From a virus: a DNA stretch of 64,000 bases. Below, in pieces: positions 20,938-35,614 of the stretch. The position numbers and the translations under genes are program-made. The notes beneath the pieces are model-generated. The model was not told where the DNA came from, did not search any database, and was given only the letters and a program-made list of their open reading frames with translations. Location: the IMG/VR virus record IMGVR_UViG_3300014501_000001, positions 1-64,000 of that record. One strand, 5' to 3'. Position 1 is the first letter of the stretch. Each line of letters begins with the position of its first letter.

Positions 20938-22725
20938 ATGAAGCCCGACAAGTTCGCACTCACCGCCGAACTCCACCGCACGCACTCGCTGCTGCACGGC
21001 AACGCGCTCCAGCACCAGATCGGCATCAGCACGACGGCGAACGAGATGACCGTGGTCATCATGATCGCGATCGTGCTCGTGGTAGTCGGCATCGCCGCCG
21101 CGCTGATCAAGGCCCTCTGACCGCGCTGACCCGTAACCACCGGAAGGGAGTCCCGCAATGGCCGCCAGCCTCAGGGAGCGCGCCCAGCGCCGCTCAGCCG
21201 AGGTCTACCAGGCTGCCATCAGGGACGCCCTGGCCGAGGGGAATGGGCGGCAGGCGCTGCACCTCGCGATCCGGGCGCTCCTGTCCGAGTCCGCGAAGAT
21301 CCGGCGCCGCCGCCCCGCCAGCGCATCGCTGGCGGATGCGGAACTGGCCGGTTCGATCGCGGCAATCGCCGCCGGGCTGCACGCCTACAAGCCCCGCAAG
21401 CCGGCCGGGTGCACGAGGGTGCCGGGACCGCACCACCTGCTGTCCGTGTACGAGGCCAGCCTTGAGCAGGCCGAGGGAGCAAGCCATGAGTGAACCGGGA
21501 GTTATCCTGCGATTGCACCGGGGAGGCGACGATGACGGCGCGTTCCCCGACGCTGAGGCACCCGCCGAGGCTCCCCGGGACACCGCAGCCGGCGGCGCGC
21601 TCGTGACCCTCAGCGGAGGCCAGATGGCCCTGCCCGATCAGGCGAAGGCTGCGCTCGCGCATGCCTTGCGGGCGGCACTGAGGCGGGCGAAGGACCTGTC
21701 CGAGCGCGAGGGCGGCATCGTCCACGGGCTGATCAATGCGAAGCCGCCATCGGTCGGGGACCAGCACCGCTACTCCGCGTCCCGCGCATGGGTTCCGCCA
21801 GGTCACGACAACGGGATCGCCGAGAGGGCAGGCGTGATCTATCACCTGCTGATCGGCCGGCCCGGCGTCGCGCTCGGGAACACCATCTCGGCGCTGGCGT
21901 CCCGCCCCCTGCGGTTCTTCCTGGCGCTGGGCGTCATCGCCATCGCAATCATCGTCGTTCTTTTCGCAGCCTGAGAGCAGGACCCATGCACGGCATCCAC
22001 GGATTCCCGGTGGCCCTCGCCGCCATCACGTTCTCGATTGCAGCGGGCCTGTGGAGCTACAGAAAGCTTCACCGCGTCACGGCGTGGGGCTTCGGCCTCG
22101 CCGCGTTCTTCCTGGCCGCTGGCCTGACGCCGTGGACCGACGCCCTGGCATCGCTGGTTGCTACGGGTGCCGGGATCACGGTCCTGGTGATCGTGGCCAT
22201 CGTCGGGGGCTTCGGGTTCCACTTCGAGGCCATCCTCAAGCACCAGCACCACCGCATCCGGACCCCGGTCATCGCCGTGACCTTCGGGACCGCGATCGTG
22301 CTGACCATCGGCAGCCTGTCCCGGCTGCTCCGCAAGGCCGCGGAAAGCCCGTCTAAGACCAGTGATGCGCTCGGCTCGGCCATCTCCCGCATCCAGTCGG
22401 GAAAGGCCGCTCACGCCGTGCCTGCGGGTCACGGGCTGTTCGTCCTCGCCATCGGTGCCGCCGTCCTGATGGCCCTGATCATGTTCGGCCACAAGATGGA
22501 GAACCGCCGGAAGGGCGGCGGCAGGGGCATGATCCCGGCTGCTGCCCGTCCCGCAGGGCGCCCGGCCCTTCCCGCTGGCAGGGGGCGCCGGCCATGAAAT
22601 CCGACCTGATCCTGCTCGGCGCGGGAGCAGTTGCCCTGCTCGGCTGGTACCTGCGCTGCAAGTCGTGGGAGCGCGAGGAAGACGCATACGCCGCTGAGGA
22701 CGAATACGAGGATCACCTGTCATGA
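20938..22725 (+). CDS. Small and membrane proteins upstream of FtsK (20938-21120, 21158-21493, 21486-21974, 21986-22597 multi-TM, 22594-22725)
   Basis: Hydrophobic segments, coupled starts; Spd-like context. Confidence 0.6.
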
Positions 22726-24770
22726 ACGAGTCCCGGCAGCCCGGCGAGCTGCGCGCCGTCGTCCGCGCCCACGATGCCATCCTCGCGCCGTATGCCTGGA
22801 TGCTCGCGGTGGACGCGGTGGCGCTGTTCGCCCGCTACGGCGTGCGCGGCTCCACTGCGCCCATCACGGATGCATGGTGGACCGTGCTGCTCGCCGCTGC
22901 CGCTGCCGGGATCTGGATCCTGCGGGCGCGCAAAGCCCGGCCGTTCCGCTTCATGACCGCCGTCATCTTCCGCCATCCGCTGCCCGCCCCGGCGCGCAAG
23001 CACGGCACCCGCTACGCCGCCTGGTGCTGGGGACTGGGCACGCTGTGGGCGCTCGTGTCGGTCACGTGGTCGCCCGGCTGGCTGATGCAGGCCATCCTCA
23101 TCATCGGCGGCACCTGCCTCGCCGCCCCGCACCTGTACCGCAGCCGCGTCAGCCATTCCGGCCCGCGCATCCTCGGCGGTCACCTGATGGGCGATGACGA
23201 CCCGGAGCCCGCTCACGTCGAGGACATGGAAGTCACCCAGACGGGACCCTATGACAGCCCGGTAGTGGGCGAGACCGTGACACCGGAGCCCGGCACGTAC
23301 GCCGCTCCCGGCTCGTCCGTGCTGCGGCCCGGCGCGAAGCCGAAGGGACGCACCGCGGCCAATGACGCCGCCCGCGAGGCCCTGGCCCGGGTTCTGTCGG
23401 ACTTCGCCGTCGATGCCGAGGTGACCGGCTTCACGCGCGGCCCGACCGTGACCCGCTACCAGATCGAGATCGGCAGCGGCACGAAGGTGGAGGCGGTCCT
23501 GCGGCTGCTGAAGAACATCTGCTACGCCCTCGGAACCGAGTCTGTGCGGATGCTCGCCCCCGTCCCCGGCATGTCCGCGATCGGCGTCGAGGTGCCGAAC
23601 GCGGACCCGGAAGTGGTCTCCCTCGGCGATGTCCTGCGCTCCCCGGCGGCGGCGAAGGACCGGCACCCGCTGACGGTCGCCCTCGGCGTGGACGTGGAAG
23701 GCCGGCCCGTGCTCGCCTGCCTCGCGAAGATGCCCCACGTTTTGATTGCGGGCGCCACTGGCAGCGGAAAAAGTACCTGCGTAAACAGCCTGATCACGTC
23801 GGTGCTGATCCGCGCCACCCCGGACGAGGTGCGGATGCTCCTGATCGACCCCAAGCGCGTCGAGCTGGCCGCCTACCGCGGCATCCCGCACCTGATCACG
23901 CCCATCGTCACAAGCCCGCAGAAAGCCGCCGAGGCCCTCCAGTGGGTCACGGGCGAGATGGAGCGCCGCTACGACGACATGGCCGCGTTCGGAGTCAAGC
24001 ACATCGACGACTTCAACCTCAATGCCGCCGCCGGGAAGCTGATCCGCCACGGCGAGCACTCGGCCGCCCTGCCGTACCCATACCTGCTGGTGGTCGTGGA
24101 CGAGCTGGCCGACCTGATGATGGTCGCCCCCCGCGATGTTGAGGACTCGGTAGTGCGCATCACGCAGCTAGCCCGCGCCGCCGGCATCCACCTCGTGCTG
24201 GCCACGCAGCGGCCCTCGGTAGACGTGGTGACCGGGCTGATCAAGGCCAACATCCCGTCGCGGCTGGCGTTCATGACGGCGAGCCTGACGGACTCCCGCG
24301 TGATCCTGGACATGCCGGGAGCGGAGAAGCTGATCGGCCAGGGTGACGCGCTGTTCGTCCCCATCGGCGCCTCCCGCCCGATCCGCATCCAGGGCGCCTA
24401 CGTGTCCGACCCGGACATCGCCGCCGTGGTCCGCCAGTGCCGCCAGCAGAACGGGCCGCACCTCGCGTCAGGCCCGGAGCCCGCGCCCGTGGTGATCAAC
24501 CCCACGGTAACGATCGCCCCTTCCGATGACGGCGATGACGCGGAACTGATCGTGCAGGCCGCCGAGCTCGTGATCCGCACGCAGTTCGGCTCCACGTCGA
24601 TGCTCCAGCGGAAGCTTCGCCTCGGGTTCGCCCGCGCGGGCCGCGTCATGGACCTGCTCGAAAACCGGGGCATCGTCGGCCCCAGCGAGGGATCGAAGGC
24701 CAGGGACGTCCTGGTCGGACCTGACGGGATGGACGCGGCACTAGCCGCGCTGAGCACGGAGGCAAGCTGA
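22722..24770 (+). CDS. ftsK: FtsK/SpoIIIE (TraB-like) DNA translocase with N-terminal TM segments and gamma domain
   Basis: [23 protein letters not shown]; gamma domain [22 protein letters not shown]. Confidence 0.92.
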
Positions 24771-30079: not shown

Positions 30080-31006
30080 TCAGTGCCTCCTGGCGGGGTC
30101 ACGATCGGCCTGCCACGCCGCCAGCGCATCGGTTCCCACCCTGGCGTAGATCAGCAGGCTCTTGACGTTCCTGTGGCCGCTCAGCGCCATCATCATCGCG
30201 GTCGACGCTCCCGCCTCCGCAGCGTCGGTAAGCGCCCGGTGGCGGATCTGGTGCAGCGTGTACGGGCCGCCGGGGAAGTCCCGGGTTGCCTTCATGAACG
30301 TGTCCTGCGCCTGCCTCGCTGACAGCCTTCCCCGGCCGTCAGGCGCAACGTCAGCGCGCGGCGTGCCTGCCGGTGCCTTCCGTGACGTGACGAACAGCGG
30401 GCCGCTCTTGCGCCCTTTCAGCAGCCGGGGAAGCGCCGACGCCGTGCCCGACTGCCACACGATCGCGGTAACGTCCGAGCCCTTCCTGACTACCCGTGCA
30501 CGGTGGTGCGGCAGGTCCAGGTCGGCGACGTCGAGCCGCAGCAGCTCCGATTCCCTCGCGGCGGTCTCCAGCATCATCCGCCAGAGCGCGCGCTCCCGCA
30601 GCGGGATCTTCTGGTCCGCCAGCAGCGCCTCGAGCACGTCCGCCGGGATTGCCCGGTCACGGTCCTCTGCTACCTTGCGCGGCGGGATGCCCCGTGCAAC
30701 CTCCGGGCCGGCCCATCCTTCCTGCCCGAAGTATGACCATGCGGACCGCAGGCATACGCGGGCCAGATTCCACGTCCTGGGAGCGCGATCCCCGGACGTG
30801 GCCTTCATCCACGCCGCGAGGTCGGCGGCGGTGACGGCCTGCACGTCCCTTTCCTCGCCGATGCCCTTTGCCATGCGCCCCAGGATCGAGCCGTACTGCT
30901 TCCTGGTTCCCGCGCTCTCGGGGTGGTCCAGGGTGGCCAGGTAGCAGGCCACGGCGTCCCAGAGCGGCATGCTGGTGCTGGGGACGGCATGCAGGGCGCG
31001 GGTCAT
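30080..31006 (-). CDS. Tyrosine recombinase/integrase
   Basis: Catalytic R (AARESE), K (VRKG), HQIRH, SGH and Y (LIYA). Confidence 0.9.
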   Translation of the reverse strand: MTRALHAVPSTSMPLWDAVACYLATLDHPESAGTRKQYGSILGRMAKGIGEERDVQAVTAADLAAWMKATSGDRAPRTWNLARVCLRSAWSYFGQEGWAGPEVARGIPPRKVAEDRDRAIPADVLEALLADQKIPLRERALWRMMLETAARESELLRLDVADLDLPHHRARVVRKGSDVTAIVWQSGTASALPRLLKGRKSGPLFVTSRKAPAGTPRADVAPDGRGRLSARQAQDTFMKATRDFPGGPYTLHQIRHRALTDAAEAGASTAMMMALSGHRNVKSLLIYARVGTDALAAWQADRDPARRH

Positions 31007-32604
31007 AGCTCAGCGTCCCACGCTGCCATGATGCGGTCCATCTCGTCAGCGGTCTCGGCTGCCTCATCGGGCATGCCGCCCGTGAATACCAGTTCCTCGC
31101 ATGCCTGCCTGGCAGCCTCCGGCCACCTGCCGCCGGCAGCATCGGCCACGGCCAGCAGCGGCTCCCACAGCTCGGCCGGCCTGTTCCCGATGCCTTCCGG
31201 CACTTCCGGGACCGCATCCTCCATCTCGCCGATGACCTGCGATGCCCACAAGGTGAGCCGCTCGCTGATCCTCGCGGCGACGAACGCGGCGTCACGGCCG
31301 AACCTCGGCGGCCGGTAGCCTTCCGGTCCCCTGGCCATCCTGACGCGGATGCCGCGGTCAAGCAGTGCCTTCAGGTGGCTGCCGGTGCCGGTCTCCAGCA
31401 CGTCCAGGCCGGCGATGGCCAGCGCGCCGAACGTGGGCAGGGATTCCACCTTGCCCGAGCGAACGCGGGTCCACGAGCCGTCCGGGGTATACCCGTCGTT
31501 CACGATGGCCCGGATGGCTGACTTGCGCTGCCCCTGGCCGAACAGGACATCGCTTTCATCGAGGAACACGGTCCGGTGCTCCTTGCCGATCGAGTGCGCG
31601 AGCGCTGCCTCTGACGGCTCAAGGAACACGCGGCCCTGCGGCGTGATCTTCGAGAGCAGCCGCAGAACATGCGACTTGCCGCTGCCGGGCTCGGAACTGA
31701 GCAGCATCAGGCGCGGCGTCGAGGGGAACACGAGCATCCCGCCTGCGTCGCGCGCATGGGCGTGAGCTGCCCACAGGGTAAGGGTGTCCAGCACGGCCTC
31801 GCTGGGGTAGATGCCGAAGTAGCCCAGGAACTTCCGGGCGTACCCAAGCTCGGCTTCCCCGTCCAGTTCAGGGCGCCGCGAAGAGACCACGGTGCCGCTC
31901 TCGCGGACCGCTACCTGCCCGGTTCCGCCGGCTATCCTCGCTGCCCTTATCGCCCGCCCGGTAGCGCTCTTGTGCGTGCACGAGTCATCTACGTGCAGGC
32001 ATTCGGTGTCAGTGGTCATGCTTCCTCCCCGAACAGGGAATCCTGGCCGGGCAGCTGCACTGCCGCCGGCGTGGCCTTGCGTGACGGCACGGGCAGCAGC
32101 CGGGGGAACAGGGTGGCCGGCGCGGTCTCGATGATCGCGCGCTCCCTCCTGCCCGCTGCCTGCCGGTCGAACTCCGCCGCCTGCATCTCGCTCCATGCGG
32201 TCATCTTCGTAAACCTTTCTTTGCGCTGATAGCTGGTCATCGAAGCCCGTTGCGGTGATGCGAGGGTGGGTATCCCACCAGTCGCAAAGATCAGAGGTAG
32301 CGTTAGCGCGGGCAGTCGCCTCATTGCCTGACCAGAGCTGCCACTCGTCGCCGAGCTTCGAGCCGCGGGCTAGCAGGTGGCCCCTTAGCTCGGTCCTGGC
32401 CTGCGCGTACTGCGCTTCTGCGGCGTACACGAAATCGCCGGTGATCAGCTTGACGCGCCGCGCTGTCATGCGCTTCACGCGCTCACGGCGGGAACGCTCG
32501 GCGGCTACCGCGCCGGACCAGTCATCGGCGGCGACCGCGGCGAGCTCGGAAAGCTCGGCGGCTGACAGCGCCGACAGGTCCGGTCGTTCTAGCGTGATGG
32601 TCAT
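31003..32604 (-). CDS. DUF3631-type P-loop ATPase (replication-associated); strong internal start at 32019
   Basis: LWAAHAH, EPGSGKS, FLDESD, NDGY, NRPAELWEPLLAVADAAGGRWP. Confidence 0.75.
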   Translation of the reverse strand: MTITLERPDLSALSAAELSELAAVAADDWSGAVAAERSRRERVKRMTARRVKLITGDFVYAAEAQYAQARTELRGHLLARGSKLGDEWQLWSGNEATARANATSDLCDWWDTHPRITATGFDDQLSAQRKVYEDDRMERDAGGGVRPAGSGQEGARDHRDRAGHPVPPAAARAVTQGHAGGSAAARPGFPVRGGSMTTDTECLHVDDSCTHKSATGRAIRAARIAGGTGQVAVRESGTVVSSRRPELDGEAELGYARKFLGYFGIYPSEAVLDTLTLWAAHAHARDAGGMLVFPSTPRLMLLSSEPGSGKSHVLRLLSKITPQGRVFLEPSEAALAHSIGKEHRTVFLDESDVLFGQGQRKSAIRAIVNDGYTPDGSWTRVRSGKVESLPTFGALAIAGLDVLETGTGSHLKALLDRGIRVRMARGPEGYRPPRFGRDAAFVAARISERLTLWASQVIGEMEDAVPEVPEGIGNRPAELWEPLLAVADAAGGRWPEAARQACEELVFTGGMPDEAAETADEMDRIMAAWDAEL

Positions 32605-33989
32605 TGCGATTTCTCCCCCTGGCTGGAGTTGTTTCTGAGTGCCCTCCCGCGCCGCGAGCGCGGATGCCCGGTCCTGCCGGTCCGAGGGCTTGACGTGCTA
32701 GCGGCTGATCGTGACTCTGCTGGTGACCTGCGCCGCGCTGGTGACTTCCCATGCCCCCGCAGGCCGGTCCTGACGGCACGCACGATCCTGCGGACGGTTC
32801 CCGCAGCCTGCGCACGGTGGAATCCGTGTGACCGGACCCCTGTAACGGTGTAGCTCATCGTTTCCCCCCTGGCTGGGATTTCACGGTGCCTTCCTGGCAC
32901 ACTGCCGGGCCGGCGCGGTAATGAGCGCGCTTGCCCTACGGCGATGTCAGAGCCCGGCTGCGACCTTGCGCAGCTCATCCGCGATGACCTGGTAAGAGGC
33001 AGCCCAGCGCGCGTCATGCTCGGCGCTCACGATCGGCTGCCCGAGCTTGCCGGCGTCGCGGAACTTCCGCGCGTCAGAGGCGTAGGACTCCGCGCGCTCG
33101 GTGAGCTGCCCTGCGCACTCAGCCCACACGCCTTCAGGATCGGTGTAGTACGTGACCGCCTCGCGGCAGTGAGGGCAGCTCTCCGGCCGCTTCGGCTTGC
33201 GCGCGGTCATGACGCCACGCTCGCATGGTCACTGATCAGCGCCGAGCCGGTACGGATGACCGCCAGCGCGTCCCTGGCCGCCATGGCGATCCCGTCCGCG
33301 TAGAACAGGTAGCCGCGCTTCGGGCCGCCTGGCAGGCACGGCGTGAAGCCCTCGGCATCCATGCGCCGCTGGCAGATGCGCTCCCACCGTTCGAGCCACG
33401 CGATGACGCTGTCGCGTCCCACGGGGCAGTCGCGGAAGTAACGCGCCGTCATGCGGTTAAGCGCCGCGCGTCCCCGCCAGTAGCTCGCTTCCGTGCCGCG
33501 GACGCCGGCAGCATGGGCCGACGCGCTGTCTGCGGCCCATGCGAAGTAGCCGCCGGCCTGGTCAAGCTCGATCCGCCTGGCGGCGATCATGACGTCAATG
33601 GTGCTCATTCCGGTAAACCTCCCTGGCTAGGTTCCTGCTGAGCTTTCCAGCGCAAGCGACGCGCGTTACCGCGCCGCTCACGCAAGCAGCTCAGGAGCTG
33701 CTATCACTGCGGCTGACAGCGCGTTGACCGCTGCGGCCAGATCCGGGAACTTCCCGAGCGGCTCCCACCGCACGCCGGACGCGCGCCAGTGCCCGCAATA
33801 GAATTCGAGCCGGCCGGCGTCACCGTTGCGGTACGACGCGCGCACCGTGCCTGCCTCGTCCCCCTCATCGATCACGAGCGTGAAGTCACCGAACGCCGGT
33901 GACCTGACAACGCCCAGGTCATCGATCATGAGAACCTCGGCCATGCCTGGCATCGTGACCGGCCGCAGATCCGTGCTTACGAACGTCAT
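32601..33989 (-). CDS. Small genes of the leftward operon (32601-32858, 32947-33210, 33207-33608, 33678-33989)
   Basis: Most are preceded by C(T/C)AGCCAGGG(A/G)G. Confidence 0.6.
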
Positions 33990-34014
33990 GTCTCGCTCCC
34001 TGGCTAGTCGCTAC

Positions 34015-34070
34015 GGGCTCATCAGGACCGGCATAACCGGCCGACGCGGCATCGCTGCCACGTTTCGCCC
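34015..34070 (-). ncRNA. Type II hammerhead ribozyme A
   Basis: GGGC GAAA CGUGGCA-GCGA-UGCCGCG UC| GGCCGG-UUAUG-CCGGUC CUGAUGA GCCC; complete core, all three stems pair. Confidence 0.92.
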
Positions 34071-34231
34071 TACCTGCGCTGGTCAATGACCGCCACGTGC
34101 CCGTAAACGTCCACCGAGCCATCCGGCCGCAGCACTACGGCAACCGGCTCAGTGACCGCGGCCAGTTCGCCTAGACCGCTCATGTCGTCGGACGAGTGGA
34201 ACCGCATGGTTGCCGTGTTCTCTCTACTCAT
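34070..34231 (-). CDS. 53-aa ORF between the two hammerheads
   Basis: MSRENTATMRFHSS...VIDQRR; GGAGG/AAGGGA upstream. Confidence 0.65.
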   Translation of the reverse strand: MSRENTATMRFHSSDDMSGLGELAAVTEPVAVVLRPDGSVDVYGHVAVIDQRR

Positions 34232-34244
34232 TCCCTTGCCTCCC

Positions 34245-34302
34245 GGGCTCATCAGCGCGGCCCCTTAGCCGCGGACTCCGCAACCATCGCGGAGTTTCGC
34301 CC
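34245..34302 (-). ncRNA. Type II hammerhead ribozyme B
   Basis: GGGC GAAA CUCCGCGA-UGG-UUGCGGAG UC| CGCGGC-UAAGGG-GCCGCG CUGAUGA GCCC. Confidence 0.92.
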
Positions 34303-34306
34303 TGCC

Positions 34307-35063
34307 CTAGCTCGCCATATGCCGCAGGAACACTGCCCGCGTCACCTCGAAAGCCCCGTTCACCATCCGTGCTACCTCGCACAAGTGCCTGCCGCACGGC
34401 GCGAACAACTCGATATGCGCGATCGTGAAGCCGAGTACGTACCGCATCAGGCAGCACTCGCCTTTGCGTGCATCTCACGGAGCGGCGCGGCCAGCATGCG
34501 CAACCGCACGTCGCCGGCGCTTGCCAGGCAGTTGCCCTCCGCGTCGTACTCACCGTGCGCGCCGTGAGTGTCCGCATGCCGGCAGTTGCCCCAGCGGTCG
34601 CACAGGACCGTGAACCTGGAGCCATCCGACGCGCACACATGAAACAGGCTGACGCGCGTCTGCGGGTAAGGCGTCTCGATCTCCTCGATGCGGTATCCGT
34701 AGTCACCCCACTCGCGGGCGATGTAGCTACCTGCCGCGCTGAGCTGGTCTGGCGTGATGCTGAGCATGCGATCTCCCTGGCTAGATGATCTTCCCGAGTG
34801 CCCGTGCCACGCATCGAACGTGACAGCCTGCCTGTCAGGACGGGCCAACTGCCTCAGTCCTCGTACGGCACCTTGTTGCTGCCGTCGTCCTGGACGCCAT
34901 GCGCGATGTCGCACCGGCTGCAGAACACGCCATCCGCATCCCAGTCCATGGAAGCGTTACCGTGCACCGGGCAACCGACCGCCATGGCGAACCTCTGCGC
35001 GTCGCTCAGCTCATCCCAGCCTGCGAGTTCCTGAGTCCGTGCCCACGCTTCGGGTGTCATCAT
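34307..35063 (-). CDS. First genes of the leftward operon (34854-35063, 34447-34767, 34307-34447)
   Basis: RBS motifs; TGATG coupling at 34447. Confidence 0.6.
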
Positions 35064-35159
35064 CTGCACTGAAACCTCCTGGTAGTCAGACGGCAGCCGA
35101 CCTGTGCCGGAGTTACGATCCGGGCCGGTCTCGTATTCATACCGCATCTGCATACCGCA

Positions 35160-35188
35160 ATGATGGGCCCTACCCGTGCCCCTGTCAA
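35160..35188 (-). promoter_or_regulatory. SigA-type promoter of the 35-30 kb operon
   Basis: TTGACA-N17-CATCAT; tandem TGCGGTATG just downstream. Confidence 0.7.
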
Positions 35189-35614
35189 CCCTGCCGCGTA
35201 AAGTTTCCGTAGTGATCTTGAAGCTAGCGCGCATGAGTGCAGGTCACGACCCTGCACCCTGCCTCCAGCCGCGTAAAGTGGTGCACTATGCGCGGCACTG
35301 AGAGCATGCCCGCGCGGGACCTGGACCGCGGCACCGATGGCAGCTCAGCGGCCAGGCCCGGCCCGGCCAGGTACATACGCGGGGTGGTCCTGCCGCCCCG
35401 GCCAGGGCAGGGCATGAGAAGACCCCCCCTGCTTCGCTCTGGGCGCGCGCCGGCGGCAAAGGGTACCTTCGGGAATTTCACGAGCGATGTCCCTTGTGCG
35501 CACATGGGACTCCGGTGCCCTCAAAAAATCTCGCGCTGCATGACTCGCGCGCATGGCACGGTAGCCGTATACCGTATACGGAAATGCCCCCTGGGGCGCG
35601 TAGCGGTATACGGG

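Follow-up and report, generated by a model that had tools for sequence, protein, structure and literature searches.

What do two hammerhead ribozyme motifs on either side of a 53-codon ORF do for the phage that carries them? The question is raised by a short minus-strand region in a 64,000-nucleotide stretch of phage DNA (the window). In IMG/VR the phage is a complete record of 113,096 bp with direct terminal repeats, and the window covers its first 64 kb. The first-pass annotation had read the region as a pair of ribozymes releasing a 231-nt RNA that could close into a coding circle, and had left segmentation of the polycistronic message as a simpler reading. We consider it probable that the motifs are two ordinary intercistronic type II hammerheads that split the polycistron into single-gene pieces. 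The features that bear on the question are given below in window coordinates.

34245 to 34302, minus strand: HH-B, type II hammerhead (sequence; RF02276, 32.3 bits over the full model; MFE fold; descriptor)
HH-B, 5′ part, minus strand: GGGC 34302-34299, GAAA, stem III hairpin of 9 bp, GUC 34276-34274
HH-B, 3′ part, minus strand: stem I hairpin of 7 bp, CUGAUGA 34255-34249, GCCC 34248-34245
Between 34274 and 34273, minus strand: cut of HH-B, predicted from sequence
34015 to 34070, minus strand: HH-A, type II hammerhead (sequence; RF02276, 34.4 bits over the full model; MFE fold; descriptor)
HH-A, 5′ part, minus strand: GGGC 34070-34067, GAAA, stem III of 8 bp with GCGA tetraloop, GUC 34045-34043
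HH-A, 3′ part, minus strand: stem I hairpin of 7 bp, CUGAUGA 34025-34019, GCCC 34018-34015
Between 34043 and 34042, minus strand: cut of HH-A, predicted from sequence
34043 to 34273, minus strand: predicted 231-nt RNA freed by both cuts, derived from the cut sites
34307 to 34447, minus strand: ORF46, conserved gene upstream of HH-B, with 4 nt between its TAG stop and the ribozyme
34239 to 34244, minus strand: RBS of ORF53 (GGGAGG, from sequence), with a 7-nt spacer to the ATG
34070 to 34231, minus strand: ORF53, 53 codons, ATG at 34231 and TAG at 34072-34070, overlapping HH-A by one base
33996 to 34000, minus strand: RBS of ORF103 (GGGAG), with a 6-nt spacer to the start
33678 to 33989, minus strand: ORF103, second cargo gene, starting 25 nt downstream of HH-A
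33693 to 34308, minus strand: 616-bp block with HH-B, ORF53, HH-A, and ORF103 minus its last codons, missing in related phages
30080 to 32604, minus strand: tyrosine integrase and DUF3631 protein, downstream of the hammerheads in the same strand block
22722 to 24770, plus strand: full FtsK/SpoIIIE gene with alpha and gamma domains, in the neighboring plus-strand block further left

The sequence bears out the first-pass annotation in every coordinate: the minus strand carries two complete type II hammerheads, with both cuts where they had been placed, and the 231-nt product holds a single RBS and a single 53-codon ORF. Stems I and III differ between HH-A and HH-B yet pair, and stem II is identical, as had been described. 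The stop codon does abut HH-A, the last G of the ORF53 TAG being the first G of HH-A stem II. The predicted RNA would begin with a 5′-OH and the stem I hairpin, and end with the stem III hairpin and a 2′,3′-cyclic phosphate.

HH-A and HH-B as hammerhead ribozymes

Judged by their sequences and predicted folds, HH-A and HH-B are considered genuine hammerhead motifs. The core was defined by C3 U4 G5 A6 N7 G8 A9, G12 A13 A14, A15.1-U16.1, H17, and G10.1-C11.1, and it is complete in both copies (CUGAUGA, GAAA, GUC, and a G-C pair closing stem II). A core pattern occurs at exactly two sites in the 64-kb window, HH-A and HH-B, with 0.03 expected by chance; a stricter descriptor demanding paired stems again returned these two alone, and they are the sole hammerheads in the 113-kb genome. 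The MFE fold of each isolated motif is a three-way junction (HH-A: z = -2.8) with a stem I of 7 bp, a stem II of 4 bp, and a stem III of 8-9 bp, stems I and III being loop-closed and stem II open-ended in both copies. Positions of stems I and III that differ between HH-A and HH-B stay paired, either by two-sided change or through a G-U pair, and compensatory changes are present in 9 of the 15 pairs in an alignment of 20 hammerheads of the GGGC/GCCC type (both copies included), drawn from phage and bacterial contigs.

The Rfam type II model (RF02276), which the first-pass annotation had suggested as a check, aligned with both copies at full length, but neither reached its gathering score of 37 bits, a curation threshold rather than the definition of a ribozyme. 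Both copies cover model positions 1-66, with 34.4 bits for HH-A and 32.3 bits for HH-B (2.6 and 4.7 bits below the gathering score; E-values of 4.6e-5 and 1.7e-4 on 901 nt, and of 1.4e-6 and 5e-6 per genome), so that a default Rfam scan lists neither. The shortfall comes from the 3′ tail of the model and from a shorter loop I, and not from the core: both HH-A and HH-B are without two consensus bases of the tail, and their loop I is shorter. They share with RF02276 the full-length alignment, the intact core, the open stem II, and the closed stems I and III. A weak third match to the model (genome positions 98998-99054, E = 0.77, 12.5 bits) failed the descriptor and was taken as noise.

HH-A and HH-B differ from type II examples in their short loop I and in the pseudoknot between loop I and the 3′ tail, which about half of the examples have and which here is lacking or weak. 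At least 4 Watson-Crick pairs at this place were found in about 52% of 198 hammerheads (among the matches listed), whereas the pseudoknot is absent in HH-B, and the pairing in HH-A (UUAUG with CGUAG) has 3 Watson-Crick and 2 G-U pairs, is weak, and overlaps stem II. This could slow cleavage at cellular Mg2+. When nascent HH-B was folded with 30 nt of upstream sequence, the predicted MFE structure was an alternative pairing and not the hammerhead; translation of ORF46 may, on this model, free the nascent HH-B to fold. Before any cut, the MFE fold of the precursor pairs the 3′ part of HH-A (34028-34010) with the sequence flanking HH-B on its 5′ side (34311-34299, with a duplicated GGGC in TAGGGCAGGGC).

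Genome context and genes around the ribozymes

The GC content is 68%. Codon-position GC and ORF layout place the ribozymes in a leftward, minus-strand block of small genes, from about 37.9 to 28.6 kb, which also has a WhiB-like gene, the DUF3631 protein, and the tyrosine integrase; the divergent plus-strand block opens with a large-terminase match just below the Pfam cut-off. It is plausible that the block is an early operon, the term used in the first-pass annotation, though a search for promoter-like sites returned just one, a weak one, and a search for terminator-like sites none. Both hammerheads are on the coding strand in intergenic gaps: the preceding stop codons end 4 nt before HH-B and 1 nt into HH-A, and the following start codons lie 13 nt after HH-B and 25 nt after HH-A.

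A blastn search with 33000-35300 against isolated phages (INPHARED) gave no match, and the phage appears to be an uncultured high-GC lineage without sequenced relatives among isolated phages. Neither ORF53 nor a 533-aa neighbor matched anything in IMG/VR, and neither the exact HH-B pattern nor the exact HH-A pattern was found there. The ORF46 alignment had no match in IMG/VR or in GTDB genomes, and three weak partial matches only in JGI metagenomes. The GGGC/GCCC hammerhead pattern is present in 15 contigs of GTDB genomes, and because these span many phyla, the pattern gives no clue to the host.

ORF46 is real and conserved: it has homologues in 11 clusters with 72-98% identity, all but one of which are 46 aa long. 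It matches no known family in Pfam, PHROG, or Atlas. H11, C18, H21, and C23 are invariant across the 11 homologue clusters and may form a small metal-binding knuckle. ORF46 is also a sharply bounded mosaic module, over which the depth of run X2 reaches its maximum of 74x. The one contig from an RNA library (X14, a vent metatranscriptome) is 156 nt long, covers ORF46 alone, matching 34309-34447 without mismatch, and has unrelated ends; it does not show transcription.

ORF53 has per-codon-position GC of 0.67/0.44/0.78, typical of coding sequence here, and a single homologue (P0014, 80% identity), with no match in Pfam, PHROG, or Atlas. An ATG at 34252 on the minus strand, within the CUGAUGA core of HH-B, is in frame with ORF53, so that gene callers give a 60-aa form (P0013); the position of the RBS supports 34231 as the start, i.e., the 53-aa form. 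ORF103 likewise has one homologue (P0016, 75% identity), with a different C-terminus, and no family match in Pfam, PHROG, or Atlas.

Variation of the locus among related strains

We compared the window with related-strain runs over 33400-34900. These are contigs, from which RNA ends, strand, and expression level are not readable, and runs of small share were not used for naming a habitat. In DNA contigs from two different lake/freshwater studies (X6 and X9), position 34309 abuts 33692, so that 616 bp are gone: HH-B, ORF53, HH-A, and ORF103 except its last codons. At the joint the ORF46 stop changes from TAG to TGA (the T of 34309 with the GA of 33692-33691). The joint has 2 nt of microhomology. 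The C-terminus of ORF103 (…AAPELLA) diverges from that of its homologue (…GTFKV) at about the boundary of the 616-bp block, which fits an illegitimate recombination junction.

A 317-nt contig from a third study (X2) is 100% identical to the window over 34238-34340, i.e., over all of HH-B and the RBS, and then goes from 34238 to 34071, the start of HH-A, either directly or with about 157 nt of other cargo between. It therefore keeps both ribozymes and skips the body of ORF53 (166 nt). Run X2 also has no cover over 34114-34215, and the absence of ORF53 is read from the 34071-to-34238 contig alone and not from this missing cover. A further X6 contig matches HH-B without a difference, and its similarity to the window breaks off at 34238. 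The breakpoints in DNA, 34238 and 34071, are the outer edges of the ribozymes and not their cut sites. In the related-strain contigs, 14 variable places are listed in ORF46 and 9 in ORF103, and none inside HH-A or HH-B. HH-B is also present behind an ORF46 relative of 76% identity (P0009), in which the stop codon has become a Glu codon and the ORF runs on into HH-B, ending at a TAA in loop I; its 13 extra residues equal the translation of HH-B in the window. The joints in X2, X6, and X9, together with P0009, indicate that the accessory block carrying the ribozymes is variable and that they move with it. These contigs suggest two tandem "hammerhead-RBS-ORF" modules, both within the 616-bp accessory block, as a better reading of the locus than a single bracketed cassette; such modules would act as insulated plug-in units.

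The same variability lends itself to an alternative, that the motifs are mainly non-catalytic and are kept as conserved boundaries or hairpins of a mobile accessory block, working as DNA-level recombination linkers or as RNA stability elements that rarely, if ever, cut themselves in the cell. Consistent with it, the block with both motifs is an indel between close relatives, the X2 contig retains HH-B and HH-A without ORF53 and with breakpoints at the outer ribozyme edges, and the motifs have no clear tertiary contact and Rfam scores below threshold. We nevertheless regard this alternative as unlikely. The whole catalytic core is intact in both copies despite the complete divergence of stems I and III, which is hard to explain without selection on catalysis; HH-A and HH-B share merely 9 and 12 nt of identity, a poor substrate for homologous recombination within the genome; and tested relatives of these hammerheads do cleave (PMC3088659; PMC8782182).

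Hammerhead arrays in phages

The paired design, which the first-pass annotation did not know to have been described, has a clear precedent: Perreault et al. (2011; PMC3088659) reported clusters of hammerheads on either side of a single gene or a short run of genes in prophages of Clostridium scindens, Azorhizobium caulinodans, and Agrobacterium tumefaciens. They showed cleavage of the clustered hammerheads in vitro and in E. coli, considered and looked for circular and spliced products without detecting either, and reported an integrase near the prophage hammerheads. The likeness to our locus is close, with same-strand hammerheads between small phage genes, inconstant flanked genes, an integrase nearby, and a polycistron predicted to yield single-gene RNAs; the differences are in the phage and host lineage (here uncultured, 68% GC, from permafrost and lake metagenomes) and in the cargo genes. 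A second precedent is Desulfovibrio vulgaris, in which Olzog et al. (2021; PMC8782182) used cyPhyRNA-seq, which captures 2′,3′-cyclic-phosphate and 5′-OH ends, to find that two type II hammerheads about 310 nt apart (loc 2 and loc 3) cut themselves in vivo. There, as here, two same-strand type II hammerheads lie by phage-like genes, but the flanked genes differ, and cleavage is proven there and predicted from sequence here. A 2019 review (PMC6765202) called the role of bacterial and phage hammerheads "largely elusive" and cited processing of polycistrons as a suggestion.

The first-pass annotation had proposed a search of other phages for paired hammerheads, and such loci turned out to be frequent. 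A pattern scan of IMG/VR returned at least 120 contigs, in which the descriptor then found 198 hammerheads among the matches listed. Two or more hammerheads were present in at least 38 loci (38 of the 120 listed). Their 96 neighboring same-strand pairs (among the matches listed) release 68-2200 nt, and several of these listed pairs release 227-290 nt with an ORF of 40-70 codons, for example L106 (227 nt, 57 aa), L028 (243 nt, 54 aa), and L025 (257 nt, 57 aa). Placement between genes is just as regular: among the matches listed, an ORF stop lies -6 to +40 nt from the ribozyme 5′ end in 164 of 192 hammerheads, mostly at -1 to +5, and an RBS and start codon follow downstream in 157 of 192 (median 25 nt). 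A stop codon abutting the ribozyme thus appears from these sequences to be a family signature. HH-A and HH-B have the layout of clustered phage hammerheads, being on the same strand and 231 nt apart from cut to cut around ORF53, and also the placement of the family, on the sense strand between an upstream stop and a downstream RBS. The arrangement is a further example of a layout published for phages since 2011.

Four IMG/VR loci (L010, L064, L082, and L085) have doublets of back-to-back type II hammerheads 9-13 nt apart, which would free a 68-69-nt RNA made of the ribozyme halves alone, with no ORF. Among the GTDB contigs, two, from a Lysobacterales MAG (L134) and a Salinarimonas MAG (L141), have four type II hammerheads apiece, all on one strand and within a span of about 2-3 kb, so that proteobacterial genomes, too, have arrays of the GGGC/GCCC subtype.

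Probable segmentation of the polycistronic message

Segmentation of the polycistron, the simpler reading of the first-pass annotation, has better support than the circle. Each ribozyme would fold during transcription of the operon and cut after its GUC, and the two cuts would yield a piece on the ORF46 side, the 231-nt ORF53 mRNA, and a piece on the ORF103 side. Downstream pieces would begin with a 5′-OH and a GC-rich stem I hairpin, and upstream pieces would end with a stem III hairpin and a 2′,3′-cyclic phosphate. The sequences show the motifs, where they lie, and that the block varies as DNA; from these we infer cleavage, its rate in the cell, and an effect on expression.

Such RNA ends should uncouple the stability and translation of adjacent cistrons, as insulators of the RiboJ type do. 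RiboJ is an engineered self-cleaving hammerhead placed just upstream of an RBS, with a measured effect. In both cases cleavage fixes, or here would fix, where the downstream cistron begins, with a hairpin as its 5′ cap; for HH-A and HH-B the role is a natural one and is proposed. Insulation or stability would be the benefit to the phage.

Possible circular and spliced products

The first-pass annotation proposed another fate for the 231-nt piece, namely that it refolds as a chimeric hammerhead and could ligate into a coding circle. The ends would be joined either by the reverse reaction of the chimeric hammerhead or through a host ligase of the RtcB type, and a stable, translatable circular mRNA for ORF53 would result. 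The junction of the predicted circle would read GCCGCGUC followed directly by CGCGGCUAAGG (34043 joined to 34273). In favor of this reading, translation in bacteria can start at an internal Shine-Dalgarno site. An endless ORF is not part of the picture, since there are stop codons in all three frames of the 231-nt circle.

The geometry of the chimera is as had been described, with stem I and CUGAUGA-GCCC of HH-B at the 5′ end and GGGC-GAAA-stem III-GUC of HH-A at the 3′ end, and the fold is within reach, since forcing it on the 231-nt RNA costs +0.4 kcal/mol (MFE) or +1.3 (ensemble) and the probability of the chimeric stem II with the natural cargo is 0.14. It is not, however, favored over shuffled cargo: 55% of dinucleotide-shuffled cargos equal or exceed this probability, and the 5′ GCCC pairs preferentially, at a probability of 0.85, with an internal CGGGC (34102-34098). 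Nor is the shared stem II a special adaptation, because GGC/GCC is found in 64% of unbiased IMG/VR neighbor hammerheads (among the matches listed) and is therefore mostly a trait of the subclass. In the 96 IMG/VR neighbor pairs (among the matches listed), the chimeric stem II has a mean of 2.66 bp, compared with 2.86 for random chimeras and 3.48 for native hammerheads. No signature of ends brought together beyond chance was found, either in the comparison with shuffled cargos or in the 96 listed pairs.

The ends left by the two cuts, a 5′-OH and a 2′,3′-cyclic phosphate, are of the type that RtcB ligates (background in PMC8782182), but RtcB was not found among the genes of the phage, and no tertiary contact favoring ligation is evident. 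For comparable arrangements, circular or spliced products were sought and none detected (PMC3088659), and the D. vulgaris ribozymes were detected by a method built for free 2′,3′-cyclic-phosphate and 5′-OH ends (PMC8782182). Hammerhead-bearing retrozymes and viroid-like circular RNAs, and the synthetic twin-ribozyme system Tornado (background, in part PMC7761336), resemble our locus in that two cuts leave ends of this kind, joinable in principle, and in that after cleavage a single hammerhead can re-form from the terminal ribozyme halves. Those systems have identical repeated ribozymes in mostly non-coding RNA, with circles and ligase demonstrated, whereas here the ribozymes differ, the RNA encodes a protein, the circle is hypothetical, and the indel at the DNA level is not bounded by the cut sites. 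We give the circle, possible but unsupported, a slim chance.

Splicing by the ribozymes, in which the 231-nt piece would drop out and a trans hammerhead would ligate the RNA of the ORF46 side to that of the ORF103 side, was raised as a possibility by Perreault et al. (2011; PMC3088659) and might seem to be helped by the precursor pairing of 34311-34299 with 34028-34010, but that pairing uses the extra upstream GGGC and invades HH-A stem I, so that no proper hammerhead results, a proper trans stem II would be just 4 bp between two separate molecules, and the spliced product was not detected in that study; we rejected the trans-assembled hammerhead on geometry and give splicing hardly any credence.

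Significance

Across the 96 neighbor pairs (among the matches listed), the shared stem II bears no mark of selection for re-forming a ribozyme around the cargo, which weakens the idea of a circular mRNA for the whole class and not for this locus alone. Should the circle prove true after all, coding circular RNAs would have a natural source in bacteria, namely the many twin type II hammerhead cassettes of phages. A cultivable relative with such a cassette would make a useful test system, the role of these ribozymes being still "largely elusive" (PMC6765202). The ribozyme block is gained or lost as DNA between close relatives, and one strain (X2) keeps the ribozymes but not the intervening ORF; this variability of the block supports "hammerhead-RBS-ORF" units as plug-in accessory modules.
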